Source of the DNA: an uncultured Verrucomicrobiae bacterium
GTDB lineage: Bacteria > Verrucomicrobiota > Verrucomicrobiia > Limisphaerales > JAFGQR01
Direction: 5' to 3'
Assembly: GCA_963788655.1 (NCBI GenBank)
Contig: CAWBHS010000032.1
Coordinates: forward strand, 1 to 13,534
DNA: 13,534 bases
The notes under the pieces: generated by a model
Database searches by the model: none
What the model was told of the DNA's origin: nothing
What the model saw: only the letters and a program-made list of their open reading frames with translations
In this document: positions 1-7,984 of the stretch, piece after piece
Numbering within the stretch: the first letter of the stretch is position 1
Layout of the letters: every line of letters starts with the position of its first letter
Program-made: the position numbers and the translations under genes

Positions 1-2632
1 CCAAGCGACAAATCTCGTCGAGGTGGCGGATACCAACCAGGAAACGGATTTGTTCGCACGCGACTTGGAAACGGGCACCACGCACTTGATCAGTCCCAAC
101 GCCGCCGGCACCGCCACGGGGAATGGCCGATCCGAGCAGGCCGCCATGACGCCGGACGGAAAATACGTTGCGTTTGTAAGCACGGCCACGGATCTCGTCC
201 CCGGGGTGACTAACCGCCGGGGCGACGTTTATGTGCGTGACTCAACGCCGGTCAAACCTTTTGGGCGAGCACGAACGTCGGTGCCGCCATGCCGGACGCC
301 GCCGGCTACGAATGCTTTGGCCCGGCGCTCAGCGCGGATGGACGTTCCGTGGTTTTAAAGCAACGGGCATCGGAGTGACCAATGAGATATTGTTCGTCCA
401 TCACGATTTGAAACGGGCGTGAACACGGTGCTCACGCGGGAAACGGCGGCGGATACCTGGCCGCAACTCAGTGCTGACGGACGTTTCGTGGCTTACGAAA
501 GCACCAATCAGGTGTACCACTGGGACCGGGAACCGGTTCGAACGTGCTTGTCAGTGTGGCCATGGATGGCATTAATTCAGCGAGTGCCGCGGCGCGAGCT
601 CCGCTGATGACACCAAACGGATCCGGGTCGTGTTCCTGAGCTCAGCGACGAATCTGGTGGACGGCGGAATCAACGGTGTCTGGCAAATCTACCAGCGAGA
701 TTTGGAACATGACGTCACGACTCGGTCAGCGCCGACGATGACGGCCGGCCCGGGGCGGTGCATTTGGACGTTGCCCTTCCCTCGCTCAGCCCGGACGGTC
801 GCTGGGTGGCCTTTTCGTCAAGTGACGACCGTCTGGTGGCCGACGATTTGAACGGGATGGAAGATGTCTTTGTTTGCGAGGTGACTGCGGGCGTAACTCG
901 GTTGGTTTCCGCGCGCGATCCCGCGTTGGCCGCGTCACTGGTTCCGCCCTGAGTGCTCGCGAAGTCGGCGCCATTTCAGCCGACGGCAAGCGGATCGGTT
1001 TTGTTAGCCTGGACGGCAACCTGGCACCGCGGCGACACGAATGGGTGGCAGGATGCGTTCGTACAGGACATGGGCACCGGTCGGTGATGCCGTTGAGTGT
1101 CGATTCGAATGGCGGCTTCAACGATACCAATAGTATTCGCTCGCAACTTGACGTGAGCGCCCATGGTGAAGCCGCGGCCTTCTTGTGGCACAATTACGAT
1201 ATACGATAATGCCCATCCATTATACGTGAAATATCGAATCCCGGCGATGTCTATTGGTATGATTTCGACAGTGGTCAGGCGCTGCTGGTGAACGCCGATT
1301 CCGCCGGCAGTCCGATACGAAGTTGTCGTTCTCCGGTGGTCAGTCCGGATGGCCGGTACGTGGCCTTTTGCTGCAATGCCAACGTTAGCGATTTGGTGCC
1401 GGGAGCGTATGGCAGTTACAATAATTACTACAACGTCTATCTGCGCGACATGTGGGCGGGCACCAATGCGCTGATCAGCCAGGATTGGTATGGCGACGGA
1501 CTTTGGGATGATTCCGCGACGAATTGTGTGTTCAGCCCGGATGGACATTGGATTCTGTTTGCCACGGCGGCGTCGTATGTCACGGCAGACACTCCGGACG
1601 GCGTCTTCAGTCTCTATGCCCGCAACCTCGTCGAGCAAACCACGACGTTGATCAGCATTCGACCAAAGCCCAGCGCACTTGGGGGTACTTACGCGACGCG
1701 GTATTCAGCGCCGATTCTCGTCGGGTGGCGTTCGTCAGCGGCTTGCGCACGGTCGCCGTTCGCGATCTGGTTGTCCAAACCACCACGGTGGCGGCCAGTC
1801 ATGGCGAAGCCCCCAGCATCAGTGGGGATGGGCGTTACGTCACCACCAGACACCCGTTGATCGCCCGGGCCCGACGAACATCATGGTGGCCGATCTCGAG
1901 AGCGGCACGACCGATTTGGTCAGCCGCGGCCTTTCGGGCCAGGGCGTCAACGGCGATTCCGTGGCCGCCTCGATCAGCGCGGATGGCCGGTATGTGGTCT
2001 TTGCCAGTCGGGCGGACAACCTTGTGTTGAACGATACCAACCACGCCAGCGACATCTTCGTGCGAGACCTATGGCTCGGCACCACCTTGCTCGCCAGTAT
2101 GAACTACCATGGCACGGGCCCCGGCAACGGTGCGTCCACCCAACCCATCCTGGCGGCCAATGGCCGCACGGTGGTGTTCCAGAGCTTCGCCAGCGACTTG
2201 ATTCCTCACGACTACAACGGCACGCGCGACGTGTTCGTGTTGCAGTTGGGTGGACAAGATACCGATGCCGACGGCCTGGATGACGATTGGGAAATCGCGT
2301 ATTTCAAGAATTTGGATCACGACGGGGCAGGGGACTTTGACAGCGATGGTTCGACCAACGGTGAGGAGTTCCGCGCCGGCACGGATCCGACGAACGAAGG
2401 CTCCGTGCTGCAAGTGCTGACCGTAACCGCGCCCGGCAGCGGCAGCACGACCGTGCTTTGGAGCGCCGTACCCGGTCGCACCTATCAAGTGCAGTTCAAG
2501 GATTCCATGGACGATTCGGCCTGGCAGAACCTGCCCGCGGAGGTGACCGCCAGCAACACGACCGGCGCCGCGGTGGATGGAACTTCACCGGCATCCGGCA
2601 CGCGTTTCTACCGGGTACTGTTGGCGCCATGA
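1..2632 (+). CDS. Large extracellular TolB-like/PD40 beta-propeller repeat protein with C-terminal DxDxDG Ca-binding repeats and an FYRV-terminated C-terminal domain; 5' end lies outside the window; many frameshifts
   Basis: The blade motif (S-x-DGRYVAFxSxAxNLV...DTN...D(V/I)FVRD) recurs across ORF fragments 23..358, 419..607, 630..851, 758..952, 874..1209, 1288..1860, 1524..2030 and 1679..2632 in switching frames. Frame 2 is open from base 2 (QATNLVEVADTN...). The C-terminus reads DTDADGLDDDWE...DFDSDGSTNGEEFRAGTDP then WSAVPGRTYQVQ...RFYRV; stop TGA at 2630-2632. Confidence 0.85.
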
Positions 2633-2717
2633 CGTGCGTTGTTCCGAGCGAACTGGTTTGCAAGTGCCCGATGTGAGTCTCGGCCAATGCTCAAGCATCA
2701 ATTCAAAATTGCCGTCG

Positions 2718-2870
2718 CTTCCGAGAGTCGCGCCAGCGTTTGGAGTGCGCGAAGCTTGCTCCCGCTCTCTGCAAGTGCCGGGCGTCGCCATTGGAAGGCA
2801 GCTCCAGAAACGGACCGCAACTGCGCCGGCAAGCCGGACGCACTCCAAACGCGGGCGCGACTTTCGGAGG
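2718..2870. repeat. Inverted pair of REP-like elements (REPIN/BIME-like long hairpin)
   Basis: 2718-2749 (cttccgagagtcgcgccagcgtttggagtgcg) matches the reverse complement of 2839-2870 at 29/32 positions. Each arm continues into a GGAGTGCG-x4-GCTTGC-x3-CGC unit. It lies between genes, downstream of a stop codon. Confidence 0.8.
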
Positions 2871-3007
2871 TTGCCATTCCGGCCTTGGCCCCGCCCTGAG
2901 ATGAATGGAACGGCAAAGCACGCCAATCGGAACCTCTTTTTCCGTTCCTTCGCTCGTTTGACGTTCGATTTATCGGCAAACCCGTGACCGCAGCGTTCAT
3001 TTCTCGT

Positions 3008-3036
3008 TTGCACCGGAACGCAAATCGGCCTAGAAG
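3008..3036 (+). promoter_or_regulatory. Putative sigma70-type promoter of the oxidoreductase (probably leaderless transcript)
   Basis: TTGCAC (3008-3013), 17-nt spacer, TAGAAG (3031-3036), then 6 nt to ATG 3043; no SD. Confidence 0.4.
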
Positions 3037-3042
3037 AAGTTT

Positions 3043-4379
3043 ATGAATTCACATTTTCGCACCAGTCGTCGTTCATTTCTTAAACAAGTGGCCTTCGCGG
3101 GGCTGAGCGTTCCGTTTGTCACGCGCAACCTAATGTCCGCTCCGCCGAGCGGTAAGTTGTTTCACGCCAGCTTTGGTGGCAGCGGCATGGCGGGCGCCGA
3201 TCTGGAAACCATTACCCATCATGATTTCGTCCAACTCGTCGCCGTGGCCGACGTGGATCTCAGCCGCGCCGCCCGCTGGAAACAGCAGTTCCCGAACATC
3301 AAGATTTACCAGGATTGGCGCCAGTTGCTTGACAAGAAAAACAACTCGACTCGGTCAATGTGTCCGTCCCTGATCACATGCACGGCCCGATCGCGATGTC
3401 CGCGCTGCAACTCGGCAAGCACGTGTATTGTCAAAAGCCGCTCACGCATGACGTTTTTGAAACGCGGCAACTAACTCTGGTTGCGCGACAGAAGAAACTC
3501 GCCACGCAGATGGGCATCCAGATTCATTCGAGCCGGGAATACATGACTGCGGTGCGCCTGGTGCAGGATGGCGCCCTTGGCAAGGTCAAGGAAGTCCACA
3601 CCTGGAGCAACAAGAAATGGGGCGACATGAGTGCGCGTCCGGACCGCAGCGACCCGGTGCCCGACGGTTTTGATTGGAATATCTGGTTGGGCGTGTGCGC
3701 GGAGCGTCCCTTCATCGGCAATGCCTACTACCACCCGGGCAACTGGCGCAAACGTCTCGACTTCGGTACCGGCACGTTTGGCGACATGGGCTGCCATATT
3801 TACGATCCGGTGTTCAAATCGCTGGAACTGACCGCGCCGTTGTCGGTGCGCTCCGAGGGCCCGACGCCCAACCAATGGAATTGGGCCATCAACGCGGTGA
3901 TCCACTACGTGTTCCCCGGGACCCAGTTCACCGAAGGTAAGACCGTGAAGGTGACGTGGTATGACGGCGATGCCCGCCCGCCGCAGGACGTGCAGGCGTT
4001 GCTCGGCGGACAAAAAATACCGGGGCAGGGCTCGATCCTCATCGGCACAAAGGGGGTCATGCTCATCCCGCACATTGCCATGCCGCAACTGCTACCGAAG
4101 GAACAGTACCAGGACTACAACATTCCCAACGTGACCGCGCCGCACCATTACACGCAATTCCTCGAAGCCGCCCGCGGCAACGGCAAACCGCCCCTGGCCA
4201 ATTTCGATTACTCCGGGCCGCTGACAGAATCCGTACTCTTGGGCAGTGTGGCCACCCGGTTTCCGCACGCGACGTTGGAATGGAATGCCAAAAAACTGGC
4301 GTTTACGAATGTCGAGGAAGCCAATTCCTTTGTCCGCCGGACCTACCGGAAAGGCTGGGAAGTGAAAGGATTGTCGTAG
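3043..4379 (+). CDS. Gfo/Idh/MocA family NAD(P)-dependent oxidoreductase with Tat signal peptide; one frameshift near 3335-3345
   Basis: N-terminal SRRSFLK twin-arginine motif and a Rossmann-like FGGSGMAG. VAVADVD and IYQDWRQLLDK join, after a frame change at gacaagaaaaacaactc, to LDSVNVSVPDHMH, GKHVYCQKPLTH, WRKRLDFGTGTFGDMGCH and C-terminal RRTYRKGWE. Confidence 0.92.
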
Positions 4380-4700
4380 GCCCGCTTGCTTCCAACTCCC
4401 AGTAGCTTCGATGTAACGGTACGGACGCGGTGCATGCTGAACGAGCTTCTCGTTCGGCACTTGGGAGGCAACATTTGCCGGCATGCTCTGCGAGCCTTCT
4501 TTCGACGGAGAAGCGGACGGCGGAAACTCACTTCTAAACTAGCCAAGAACTGAGAGATTTCTCACGTCGGTTCCTATGGTTCAGGGTGTTCGGTCGTTTT
4601 GCCGAATTATGGAAAGGGGCGGATAAGTTGCCAATCAAACCCCGGTCCAAGCAAAACGCCAGCGGGGGGAGGCGGACCGTTACCAGCGGTATGGAAAGAT

Positions 4701-4782
4701 AAAAAAATGGCCCTGGCAACAGCAGCCAAGGAGGTGGGGATGGGGAATCCCGCTGTGAGGTATTTATACTGTTACCAGAACC
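4701..4782 (-). ncRNA. Candidate ~82-nt small RNA with 16-bp closing stem, C-rich/anti-SD loop and U7 tail
   Basis: GGUUCUGGUAACAGUA (4782-4767) pairs fully with UGCUGUUGCCAGGGCC (4724-4709) using 4 G-U pairs, followed by AUUUUUUU. An inner hairpin GGGAU-UCCCC-AUCCC is followed by CACCUCCUU. A promoter lies directly upstream. I cannot assign an Rfam family. Confidence 0.65.
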
Positions 4783-4788
4783 GCGTCC

Positions 4789-4850
4789 TTTTTACCCGAT
4801 TCAGACCAAGGGTGTCAACGCCATTATTGGATTTTTTTCAGACTTTTTTC
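4789..4850 (-). promoter_or_regulatory. Sigma70-type promoter with A-tract UP-like element driving the candidate sRNA
   Basis: Minus strand: A-tracts at 4849-4844 and 4838-4832, consensus TTGACA (4818-4813), 18-nt spacer, TAAAAA (4794-4789). The predicted +1 near 4782 coincides with the first base of the stem. Confidence 0.6.
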
Positions 4851-4930
4851 GCCAGGGCATTTCGCCGTTCCTGATCAGCGAATGATGAGCCTTGTCGCCC
4901 CAAGCCGGAACTCCATTGCCGCTCGGCCAA

Positions 4931-5419
4931 TCAGAGGTCTATTCGCGTAGCGGTGCCTGTCGCGGTGTCGTAATTGACAAAGGTCGAGTTGCCTGTCAGG
5001 CCGCCGTAGATTTCGCCGGGATTGATCATCAGCGTCTGACCCTGCGGCGTGATTTCGAAACGATGGTTATGTCCAAAACAGACCACGTCATAGCCACCGC
5101 CTTTGGCTATGGCCCGGCCAATATTGTCAAAATGATTTACGGAAAACGTCTTGCCGCCCAGTTCGAGTTCCACATATTCCCCGTGAAAATTCAGGTGCGG
5201 AAATTTCGCGCCGTTCGCGGCAATCCGGAAGCGGTCACCGTCATTGTTACCGAACACCACGTGGATGGGCTTGGAAAATCCCTGGCCCAGTTCCTTGGCA
5301 ATAAAGGGCGAACAAAGGTCACCGCAGCAAATCAGCGTCTCCGCCTCCTGGCAGCGCCGCAACGCCGCCTGCAGCTTGGGGATGTTGTCATGAATGTCGG
5401 ATAATATGGCCACGTTCAT
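4931..5419 (-). CDS. Metallophosphoesterase, YfcE/MJ0936/Vps29-like (calcineurin-like phosphoesterase superfamily), 162 aa
   Basis: Motifs SDIH, CGD, GNND, NH, GHNH and INPG occur in the correct order. Start taken at MNVAILSDIH (ATG 5419) rather than the longer 5479 ORF. Confidence 0.92.
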   Translation of the reverse strand: MNVAILSDIHDNIPKLQAALRRCQEAETLICCGDLCSPFIAKELGQGFSKPIHVVFGNNDGDRFRIAANGAKFPHLNFHGEYVELELGGKTFSVNHFDNIGRAIAKGGGYDVVCFGHNHRFEITPQGQTLMINPGEIYGGLTGNSTFVNYDTATGTATRIDL

Positions 5420-5527
5420 GCCGGCATGCTTAACGGCAAACGACGGGCAAGGCAAGAATGGGACTTGGCGAACGATCAATTATCGAGTCCTTCCTTGTTT
5501 GCGCTGCGAATGCGGTTCGGGCTACCA

Positions 5528-5707
5528 TTAGGACCGATGAGCCAGGCTGTCGGCCAAACCAAACCGAACCCGCATCGCGTGATTTCGCCGGGGTCCGCGC
5601 TCGAAGAATTCCCGAACCGTTTCAAGATCAGCTTGCCGCAATTGGTCTTGGAACGCGTGGGTGGGGACCGCGAACGAATCGCCCAACACCTCGACCAATT
5701 TAGGCAT
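5528..5707 (-). CDS. Small hypothetical protein (59 aa from ATG 5707), possibly frameshifted
   Basis: ATG-started ORF MPKLVEVLGDSFAVPTHAFQDQLRQADLETVREFFERG..., co-oriented with both neighbours; no recognisable motif. Confidence 0.3.
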   Translation of the reverse strand: MPKLVEVLGDSFAVPTHAFQDQLRQADLETVREFFERGPRRNHAMRVRFGLADSLAHRS

Positions 5708-5817
5708 TGATAGCAATGGAGACACTTCGGTCACCCGCGCAGCTTAGGCCAAGATGAATCACCGATGCAATCTTGCCCGCCCAAGGCTCCATGGATTAGA
5801 CACGTATAAGGGGTGGG

Positions 5818-7984
5818 TCACGGCATCGGGGTGAGTCCCTCCCACTGCACCTTCCAACGGCCATTGTTTGGAAAACCCGGCGCAGACCTCTTTGGCGCCC
5901 CATCCCAGCCGGCAGCCATCATGGCCACCGCCGTTAACAAACCGCCGTTGCCTGGGAGATACAATTGGAGGTTGCCGCGTTGGAAATTATGCCCGTTGGC
6001 GAGGTAATGGTTCTTCGGCGTATCCAGCAGCAAGGCGTCAATGGCCTCTTCGGGTTTGCCGACGCGCGCGGCGGTCATCGCCATCATCGGGTAATCCCAA
6101 CCCCAGGTCCGCGGCCAGTCCCAGGTCTTTTGCACGTTGTCAAGAGTGCGGCTCATTGTGTCGGGATCGATCAGCGGTGTGAGCGGTAGAACCCCCAAGG
6201 CCGCCAGCATGGACGGATGATCCTGGCGTTTGGTGAAGGGCGGCGTCTCGATGGCGGCATAAACACCTTCCTTGACCGTGGGCTTGGACAAATGTTTCAA
6301 CACGCGATCCCATTCCGGATTGCGCGCCAAGCCCAACCGCTCGCGCCATCGCTGGGCGGTGTTCAGGCCCCAATCCCAATAGGCCAATTCGAACGTGGGG
6401 TTGAGGGTGGTGCGCCGATCATAATTTTCCTGGGCCGGGATCAGGACCGGTCCCAAGACGTAGCGCTGATTCGCGGCATCCCAAACCGGATACGACGCCA
6501 TGAATTCGGCCGTCTCGAAGACCAGTTCCCGATAACGTTCCAACGTGGCGCGCTCGGGATGAGCCCGGTAAGCCAATTCGGCGTAATAGATCGGGTGCGG
6601 CTGTTGCCAGATCAGGAACACTCCGACGCTGCTCGGACTTTCGCGTCCATCCGGTCCCACCATCTTTGGCCAGCGGGCGCCGCGGTAGCCCTGGCGTCGG
6701 GCGGTCGCCTGGGCCATCGGCAGGATGCGCTGATACCAGGGCAAGCTGCGTTCGAGCAGTTCGAGGCGATTCCACAAGGCGAAGTGCGCCGCGTGCCACC
6801 AGTGCATTTCGAGATGGAACTTCCCGTACCAGCTATTCTGAACCAGACCCGTTTCCTGCGGCGGCATCGAACCGGCGCAATTAATGGCCGTCACGTATTG
6901 GGAAAGCACAATCCGGCGCTCCAATTCGTGCCAACGTGGATCAGTGCTGCCGGACAAATCGATGGCCCCACCCGTGGACCAGAACTTCTGCCAATGGCGA
7001 GCCGCGGCATCGCGCACAGCGGTAAAGTCCGGCAACCCCTCCGCGGCCGGGCGCGGTGAAAATGCTAACACCACCTCCAGCGTTTCATGGTCCTTCGCCC
7101 ATATTTCAAAATGATGCGGAGCGGTTTCTTTGATGGCGCCGCCGGCCGACCATGCCGCTTGGACGTAATAGCGGTCCGCATCCAACACTCGCTCGAACCG
7201 GCCCTGATTTCCCTGGATGCGCAGCGTGGTGGTGTGGCGGTTGGGTTATCGTCCAATCGGAGGGATTCCGCCAATTGTCCGAGCCGTAAGGAAAGGCGAG
7301 TTGCACCCCCAATCGCTGATTCTGCAACCGGGGAGACTCGATGCGCACGGCCAGCAGATCGCGTTCGGGATGGCAGACCGTTAACACCCGCACCGCTTGG
7401 CCGTCCATGGTGAATCGGCTGTCGAGTAATCCCTGCCACAAATCAAGCGTCTGCCGCGTGGCCGTCAAATCTGGCAGGCTTGCCGGAGAGCCGTCCGGGT
7501 GGCGGAGGATGAGTCCGAGGCGACCCAGGTTTAGGCGATGCGGATTGGCGCGCAGCCATTGATTGGCGGCTTTGGCCAATGGGCTTGGGGCGGCTTGATC
7601 CGGGTAGGGAACCGGGCGGCCGTTGACCTCGTAGGAATTCAGCACGTTCTCCAACTTGAATCCCTGTGGATTGGGCAGGCGGTGCCATCCCCACTGCGAC
7701 ATCGTGGCGAGCAAGATGTCCGCTTGATGAAACTCGGGAAAAGTCTGAAGCCCCGTGATGTCGGCCGTAAACGCAAACTCACCGTTGCCGACCGTCAACG
7801 GGGTGAGCGGATCGGGGTGGGTGAGCGTGACGTTATGGCGCGTCACCAACGCCCGTCGATCGATGGAAGATGCGGCACCGTGGGTTGGATTCTCGCTGCC
7901 GCGGCTTCCCTGAGCAAGCGCATCTTGACCGCAGACGCAACAGCCCAGCAGCAGGGCGACGGAGGATGTGAATATGTGTTTCAA
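5818..7984 (-). CDS. Secreted six-hairpin (alpha/alpha)6 glycoside hydrolase, GH65/GH95-like; one frameshift near 7250
   Basis: Signal peptide MKHIFTSSVALLLGCCVCG, then IDRRALVTRHN and PLTVGNGEFAFTADITGLQTF in ORF 7106..7984. It continues after SDW in the 5818 frame (PNRHTTTL...VLDADRYY) with PPQETGL, NSWYGKFHLEMHWWH, GARWPKM, LIWQQPHPIY, TWGWDYPM and YLPGNGGLL. Confidence 0.85.

Follow-up and report, generated by a model that had tools for sequence, protein, structure and literature searches.

A candidate small RNA family of Verrucomicrobiota that carries a copy of the 16S rRNA 3′ tail

The C-rich motifs of the small RNA (sRNA) RsaE/RoxS pair with G-rich ribosome-binding regions. The 6C RNA of Actinomycetota folds into two hairpins with at least six C in each loop, and the cuckoo/CcsR RNAs of Alphaproteobacteria, which are repeated behind a DUF1127 gene, form two hairpins with CCUCCUCCC terminal loops. 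Passages in three reports describe RsaE/RoxS as an Hfq-independent, C-rich and G-C-pairing sRNA that is widely conserved in Bacillota (PMC4409812, PMC6158497, PMC8216469). Passages of a 2024 study describe the Verrucomicrobiales as globally lacking Shine-Dalgarno (SD) sequences (PMC10798248; see also PMC10783764), and the former raises the question of whether the Verrucomicrobial anti-SD is occluded.

Here we present a minus-strand element of ~82 nt, U-run included (4701..4782), found in a window of 13,534 nucleotides, the whole stretch of DNA analysed, from an uncultured bacterium of the order Limisphaerales. Its sequence and its homologs indicate that the element, a member of an uncatalogued family spanning Verrucomicrobiota, is a real gene for a structured RNA and is very probably expressed. 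As read from the letters, its standout feature is the exact reproduction of the 16S tail by an RNA of a phylum in which SD sequences are little used.

The RNA most resembles the C-rich sRNAs that target SD sequences but is a member of none of them. Like RsaE/RoxS it is short and terminator-ended, has a very wide taxonomic range and presents several unpaired C-rich motifs. This resemblance is functional only: the RNA has no sequence or covariance model (CM) similarity to the RsaE model, belongs to a different phylum, and forms one long hairpin with internal-loop seeds, whereas RsaE/RoxS is built of separate stem-loops; it also repeats nine nt of the 16S tail exactly, in a host phylum that hardly uses SD. 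Like 6C it is conserved phylum-wide and has C-rich loops that are the presumed seeds, but, by the definition of 6C given above, it differs in its one terminal hairpin with a UCCCC or UUCCCCAC loop and in its internal-loop CCUCC, and it has no CM match. CCUCC-type motifs and multi-copy, sometimes tandem genes recall the cuckoo/CcsR RNAs; unlike these as defined above, the Verrucomicrobial RNA folds into one long hairpin that has its CCUCC in an internal loop, gives no CM match, and has tRNA-Asp or unrelated genes as neighbours. The nine bases CACCUCCUU also link it to the 16S 3′ tail itself: in both they are single-stranded and come right after a hairpin on its 3′ side. The flanking bases, however, are different on either side, the position of the motif is internal instead of 3′-terminal, and the RNA is not ribosomal.

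The covariance models of Rfam 15 gave no match to the window at the gathering score. At E<=10, positions 4380-4950 returned noise only (best 18.8 bits against a cut-off of 36), and a canonical copy matched only CRISPR-DR29 (11.4 vs 39 bits). In 40 homolog loci, the only families at threshold were tRNA and rRNA. No description of such an RNA in Verrucomicrobia was found in the open-access PMC and bioRxiv literature. The original prediction, made from the sequence of this stretch, had named a strong Rfam match as what would remove the novelty of the RNA; no family reached its threshold.

The element and its surroundings

The RNA sits in a 551-nt spacer between two convergent genes, one for a Metallophos_2 phosphoesterase (5479..4931, minus strand), the other for a GFO/IDH/MocA oxidoreductase (3360..4379, plus strand). 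Read along the minus strand, the element is preceded by two A-tracts (4832..4849; A7 at 4838-4832 and A6 at 4849-4844), a possible UP-like element, and by a -35 box TTGACA (4813..4818), all read directly. After an 18-nt spacer follows a -10-like TAAAAA (4789..4794), which ends ~6-7 nt ahead of the stem. This -10 box is weak, and an allelic contig of the same assembly, C99, has TAAAAC in its place. A generic promoter scan does not list the promoter of the window RNA because its rule demands T at the last -10 position. The +1 of the transcript would lie at the start of the stem.

From G4782 onward, the predicted RNA forms an outer stem of 16 pairs, its 5′ arm at 4767..4782 pairing with its 3′ arm at 4709..4724 (4782-4767 with 4724-4709), as supported by both fold and covariation. 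The only non-Watson-Crick pairs in this stem are four G-U pairs, U4780-G4711, U4779-G4712, U4774-G4717 and U4768-G4723. The 5′ side of the internal loop (4752..4766) holds an extra ACCUC at 4761-4757. It is followed by an inner hairpin (4737..4751), again supported by fold and covariation, that consists of GGGAU (4751-4747), the loop UCCCC (4746-4742) and AUCCC (4741-4737); the fourth pair of this hairpin is A-U in the window copy, G-C in most family members and C-G in one copy. Next comes the unpaired CACCUCCUU (4728..4736), identical to the 16S 3′ tail and the core of the family-invariant ACCUCCUUGGC. A U7 run (4701..4707) closes the element and would form an intrinsic terminator together with the stem; a U-run ends most members of the family.

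Folding distinguishes the two strands. The minus strand reaches an MFE of -31.4 kcal/mol (z -4.67), and 0 of 200 shuffles were equally stable, against an MFE of -21.5 (z -0.06) for the plus strand, where 87 of 200 shuffles were. The minus-strand layout of the original prediction, from A-tracts and TTGACA through TAAAAA and the 16-bp stem to U7, was thus found in place throughout, as were the GGGAU/AUCCC hairpin (4751-4737) with its UCCCC loop and the second ACCUC, and its reading of all four non-Watson-Crick stem positions as G-U on the minus strand agrees with the letters.

The prediction also held the exposed motif to be identical to the 16S anti-SD. Although the 16S gene was not found in the assembly that contains the window, the 16S 3′ end could be read from two genomes of the same order (G141, G092) as ..GGAUCACCUCCUUUCU, and the nine bases CACCUCCUU match it. 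At both of these 16S 3′ ends (L191, L192) the mature end is followed at once by the trailer CUAAGGAG. Across a UCU loop this trailer can pair with the anti-SD CUCCUU, and such a cis hairpin would mask the anti-SD of the pre-16S RNA.

Downstream of the RNA, ~320 nt (4380-4700) are free of a supported ORF, and a promoter-like TTGGCA-17-CATAAT lies on the minus strand at 4634-4606. Two minus-strand ORFs, of 130 aa and 61 aa, have no Pfam match; the first overlaps the oxidoreductase gene, and the second (4534..4719) was rejected as an explanation of the locus.

Copies, distribution and conserved structure

The assembly that contains the window comprises 8.96 Mb in 115 contigs and is 86% complete. 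A BLAST search with the element found eight places in it, all of the same architecture and with differing stem sequences. A covariance model built from seven of these copies (R1) gave 8 full-length matches of 75-94 bits in this genome; the window copy, a divergent paralog of the family, scores 93.7 bits with R1 and 75.4 bits with a second model, R2. The C99 match and the window locus are alleles of each other, positions 25-6931 of the window being 96.07% identical to positions 1-6911 of C99. Two close variants (strain or sister species) are therefore present in the bin and inflate the copy count by one, and the genome has seven distinct loci. Contigs C83 and C84 also have identical stretches in common.

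Within the order (Limisphaerales/Pedosphaera-type Verrucomicrobia), R1 matched in 40 of 41 genomes, the present one included, and in 39 of 40 genera. Of these 41 genomes, 22 have one copy and 18 have two to ten; the one genome without a copy is 92% complete. Sampled across the class, 53 of 151 genomes gave R1 matches, among them 18 of the 19 that belong to the same order. The matches are unevenly spread over the families of this sample (f59 17/17, f51 10/11, f50 0/18, f54 0/11, f61 0/11). In a sample of the phylum, model R2 found weaker but clear homologs in other classes (16 of 151 genomes), which include all genomes of three families (f90 4/4, f94 5/5, f97 2/2). The outer stems of these homologs have no sequence likeness to those of the order, whereas layout and loop motifs are kept.

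A scan of all GTDB species genomes with a 22-base core pattern returned at least 120 loci. Among the 120 matches listed, 106 bear record labels of Verrucomicrobia/-ota/-iia/-ales, Limisphaerales, Limisphaera, Pedosphaera or Akkermansia, 5 are unspecific and 9 bear labels of other taxa, all as given in the records. The model confirmed the RNA in 9 of 14 genomes not labelled as Verrucomicrobia and in the single copy of the cultured isolate Limisphaera sp. 4302-co (L184). All 80 pattern-found loci scored with the model, out of the at least 120, were full-length matches. The paralog subfamily to which the window copy belongs also includes copies on contigs C97 and C12 of the same genome and one in a second species of the genus (G001:C21), and one RNA locus keeps its synteny in two species of the genus.

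Several copies form tandem pairs, 3-30 nt or ~100 nt apart, that resemble sibling sRNA arrays (G012:C74:14853-15010, G018:C73:5258-5439, G152:C280:5230-5425, G298:C115:30281-30468, L129 and L140). A 17-base core compared with IMG/VR viral contigs had a single match, L206 (IMGVR_UViG_3300035703_004065:9126-9442), a full-length copy that scores 80.2 bits; its outer-stem sequence is its own, and the 29-kb contig around it is classed as viral. Two look-alikes without a model score were seen in the present genome: a partial one with CACCUCCUUGGC, a 3′ arm and a T-run (G000:C85:8826-8860), and a degenerate one with the C-rich core only (G000:C34:6870-6960).

The family RNA measures ~75-85 nt and forms a single long hairpin, the outer stem of which (14-19 bp) doubles as the terminator stem. 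In the canonical form of the order, the outer stem begins GAUUCGGG and is followed by a one-base bulge and a three-pair extension ACG/CGU; then come the 5′ loop UUUCUUCAGC, the hairpin GGGGU-UCCCC-ACCCC, the 3′ loop CACCUCCUUGG and the U-run. Across the family, a UCCCC/UUCCYCA loop caps the inner 5-bp hairpin, and the 3′ side of the internal loop holds the unpaired (C)ACCUCCUU, a copy of the 16S 3′ tail. In the subfamily of the window the 5′ loop reads ..AAAUACCUCACAGC, an extra ACCUC replacing the canonical ACGUUUCUUCAGC.

Covariation was assessed in two alignments. With 37 sequences, 98.6% of cells were paired and 15 of 22 pairs had changes on both sides, levels that 0 of 500 shuffles reached. 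The larger alignment holds 102 sequences (97 of them distinct) from the order, the class and the phylum. There, 96.7% of cells were paired, compared to 83.6% in shuffles, both-side changes occurred in 20 of 22 pairs (231 cells), and the covariation score was 0.413 against 0.161; 0 of 500 shuffles reached any of these measures. In a slid control, with the partner shifted by 1-3 columns, pairing fell to 34-58%. The alignment was fitted to the model, which favours structure; yet outgroup stems of wholly different sequence still pair. At the level of the aligned sequences, these patterns show that the RNA structure is under selection.

The loops are conserved in another manner. Motifs were counted in 68 members found by the model, with pattern-selected loci left out. 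CCUCC is present in 66 of the 68, CCUCCUUGG in 63 and ACCUCCUUGGC in 61; the full CACCUCCUU occurs in 49 of the 68 and in 0 of the 11 members from other classes, which read G/A-ACCUCCUU. The mean unpaired probability of CCUCCUU is 0.87, 0.85 and 0.96 in three sets of sequences, and 64 of the 68 MFE folds have a single, C-rich terminal loop (UCCCC, UUCCCCAC or UCCUC). All three single-stranded regions are pyrimidine-rich. Judged from these counts and predicted folds, exposed C-rich motifs that are nearly invariant across the phylum can be regarded as shown. The repetition of CCUC-type motifs, with ACCUC gained in the subfamily of the window, is consistent with RNA-RNA pairing.

The original prediction had proposed a self-contained and possibly undescribed 'PVC' class of sRNAs. 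Paralogs, homologs, compensated changes in 20 of 22 pairs, exposed C-rich motifs and the lack of a match in Rfam 15 bear out a self-contained RNA class that is undescribed, whereas 'PVC' is too broad a label for a family found in Verrucomicrobiota, the phylum sampled. Homologs without stem covariation and without a conserved CCUCC loop would have spoken against the class; in the homologs found, stems covary and 66 of 68 members have CCUCC.

Promoters and genomic neighbours

Promoter-like pairs were sought within 80 nt upstream of the RNA, as a -35 box with at least 5/6 agreement to TTGACA and a -10-like box 16-19 nt on. Such pairs precede 24 of 36 order loci, compared to 3 of 67 control windows. 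At 12 of the 24 promoter-bearing loci the -10 box ends 5-7 nt ahead of the stem, as in the window; at the other 12 it ends 11-20 nt ahead, which implies a short leader. The remaining 12 of the 36 loci are without such boxes, so that processing from a longer transcript is possible there. On this evidence from sequence, the family RNA is in most copies an independent gene with its own putative promoter and terminator.

The genomic position is conserved in much of the order. In 18 of 29 other order genomes the best copy and tRNA-Asp(GTC) share a strand, the RNA being 47-95 nt upstream, and a GTTGAC box, the conserved -35 for tRNA-Asp, stands between the two genes (L017, L020-L022, L024, L027, L028, L030, L032, L035-L038, L040, L041 and L043-L045). 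One copy of the order lies ahead of tRNA-Gly and one directly after 23S-5S, the gene order at L036 being 23S-5S-RNA-tRNA-Asp. A tRNA-Asp neighbour is absent from the copies of the present genome, from all 20 class-level loci and from all 11 phylum-level loci; the tRNA-Asp of the present genome (C26:37530-37606) has kept the GTTGAC box, with no RNA copy upstream.

At four loci of family f51 (L052, L060, L065 and L066) a leader of ~40 nt is apparent behind a TATATT box and holds a conserved UCUAAGGAAG / UAAGGAAG. MFE folds had no pairing of this leader motif with the anti-SD motif.

Shine-Dalgarno usage, candidate targets and readings of function

SD usage was estimated from the frequency of SD-like 4-mers at -16..-7 of the first ATG relative to internal ATGs, a crude and uncalibrated measure. 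In the present genome, 9.5% of 7436 long ORFs had such a 4-mer, compared to 6.9% at internal ATGs. Two other genomes with the RNA gave 7.1% vs 6.9% and 8.0% vs 5.0%, and two genomes without it gave 8.5% vs 11.1% and 7.9% vs 8.9%. The corresponding ratios, 1.04, 1.61 and 1.38 for RNA-positive and 0.77 and 0.89 for RNA-negative genomes, come from five genomes by a crude measure and are confounded by kinship; because of the few genomes, the uncalibrated method and this confounding, we do not use the relation of SD ratio to RNA presence as evidence. Hfq (PF17209) was found in 0 of 41 order genomes, the present one included and 30 of them of high quality. The order is therefore the kind of setting known for C-rich, G-C-pairing sRNAs, as the passages on RsaE/RoxS cited above describe.

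Candidate targets were searched for in several ways. Exact complements of the 3′ loop, 10-13 nt long, were essentially only the antisense of the RNA genes, with none of 12-13 nt elsewhere. A listing of AGGAGG followed by a start codon held 404 ORFs, mostly noise, 54 of them with stronger SD-like leaders; 20 picked from these 54 belong to unrelated Pfam families or to none (ClpX, GlgC-type, pirin, BlaR1-type, Csd1, RHS, ADH, sigma region 4). A G-U-tolerant scan over 22 nt with <=4 mismatches had no match at start sites, and the purine-rich leader of rpsU (GGAGAGGAAGUGAG) pairs unconvincingly with the RNA. For the repression of SD-led mRNAs proposed by the original prediction, these results gave no support: SD-like motifs are barely enriched upstream of starts, and the crude target searches brought out no coherent regulon.

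The present genome (G000) also holds a very abundant, dispersed palindromic repeat of the REP/MITE-like kind (e.g. C9:6131 and C87:224847; none in the window). A loose pattern counts 174 occurrences of its arms on both strands, which corresponds to roughly 90 elements. The arms, ~25 nt long (GTAGC.GCCGACGT.AGGAGGC..), contain GAGGAGG/CCUCCUC and enclose 35-45 nt of variable sequence; there are two subtypes, mostly intergenic.

The reading we prefer, by analogy with RsaE/RoxS and 6C, and to which we would give an even chance, is that of an Hfq-independent, C-rich sRNA that occludes purine-rich ribosome-binding sites. The RNA would act in trans without Hfq, and its exposed C-rich motifs would pair with purine-rich stretches (of GGAGG/GGGGA type) at or near the ribosome-binding sites of a restricted group of mRNAs. 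By competing with the ribosome, such pairing would lower translation and/or stability of the targets, as RsaE/RoxS and 6C do. The window copy and its subfamily would have gained a third such motif, the ACCUC of the 5′ loop.

A rather unlikely reading takes the RNA for a mimic of the 16S 3′ tail or for part of a housekeeping RNP. The hairpin followed by (C)ACCUCCUU would imitate the end of 16S rRNA and bind a partner that recognises the tail, for example platform proteins such as bS21/bS18/bS6, should the anti-SD be sequestered in the manner of Bacteroidia, or else the Era KH domain, bS1, a maturation nuclease or the SD-like trailer of pre-16S. Binding would in this way adjust ribosome biogenesis or set what fraction of ribosomes has its anti-SD free. 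This role stays a candidate because SD sequences are scarce in the genomes and the searches yielded no coherent set of targets; in an SD-poor phylum few mRNA targets would be expected in any case. The unpaired stretch corresponds to exactly the nine bases common to the 16S tail of the order, but the bases 5′ of the motif are unlike 16S (CCCC or G/A, not GGAU) and the C ahead of ACCUCC is lost outside the class. The ~25 loop bases that are near-invariant across classes, the single copy in 22 of 41 order genomes and the place of the main copy beside tRNA-Asp in 18 of 29 order loci, once directly after 23S-5S, would suit a housekeeping RNA that binds a protein or the ribosome equally well. For a tail mimic, however, the further CCUC/CCCC motifs in the hairpin loop and the paralog 5′ loop would be superfluous, and up to 10 diverging paralogs plus tandem pairs per genome typify sibling regulatory sRNAs and not housekeeping RNAs.

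It is unlikely that the RNA works in some other regulatory mode, as a sponge for G-rich RNA, as a ligand of a pyrimidine-binding protein of KH/S1 type or through a function not yet conceived: every exposed region is pyrimidine-rich and the target searches gave no mRNA set, but nothing specific points in this direction and the motifs are exactly anti-SD-like. Quite unlikely, in our estimate, is a stable RNA, transcribed beside tRNA and rRNA genes and acting as a free-floating anti-SD, which would serve as a decoy for factors that hold or process the tail (bS21-type, Era, pre-16S trailer) or silence rare SD-bearing, perhaps foreign or autoregulatory, messages.

Two further readings were rejected, being contradicted by the family data. 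The element lies 149 nt downstream of the metallophosphoesterase gene on the same strand, ends in a stem and U7, and a scan lists a 7-bp hairpin with a T-run here, but that it should be a mere intrinsic terminator or 3′-UTR of this upstream gene (5479..4931), functionless itself, is extremely improbable given the same RNA at unrelated loci behind unrelated genes and upstream of a tRNA in most order genomes, its conserved and structured 41-nt interior, the promoter-like boxes ahead of it and an alternative 7-bp hairpin that canonical copies do not conserve. Equally improbable as an alternative to a gene is a REP/MITE-like dispersed repeat or miniature mobile element: several copies per genome, an abundant palindromic repeat in the present genome (of another sequence) and one copy on an IMG/VR contig invite the idea, which is countered by exactly one copy in 22 of 41 order genomes, copies that differ by compensatory stem changes while their loops stay fixed, the conserved place next to tRNA-Asp, a locus syntenic in two species, and only 1 match among viral contigs.

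Because the RNA occurs in nearly every genome sampled of one large order and is recognisable across classes, it is a candidate for a new Rfam family and would be among the few sRNAs conserved at the level of a phylum. A free-floating anti-SD, if true, would add a new layer of translational control that is tied to the loss of SD-dependent initiation. The finding touches on the question raised in passages of the 2024 study (PMC10798248), namely how Verrucomicrobia initiate without SD and whether their anti-SD is occluded. An RNA bearing the same anti-SD bases offers a concrete handle on this question, which may be taken up in cultured Limisphaera.
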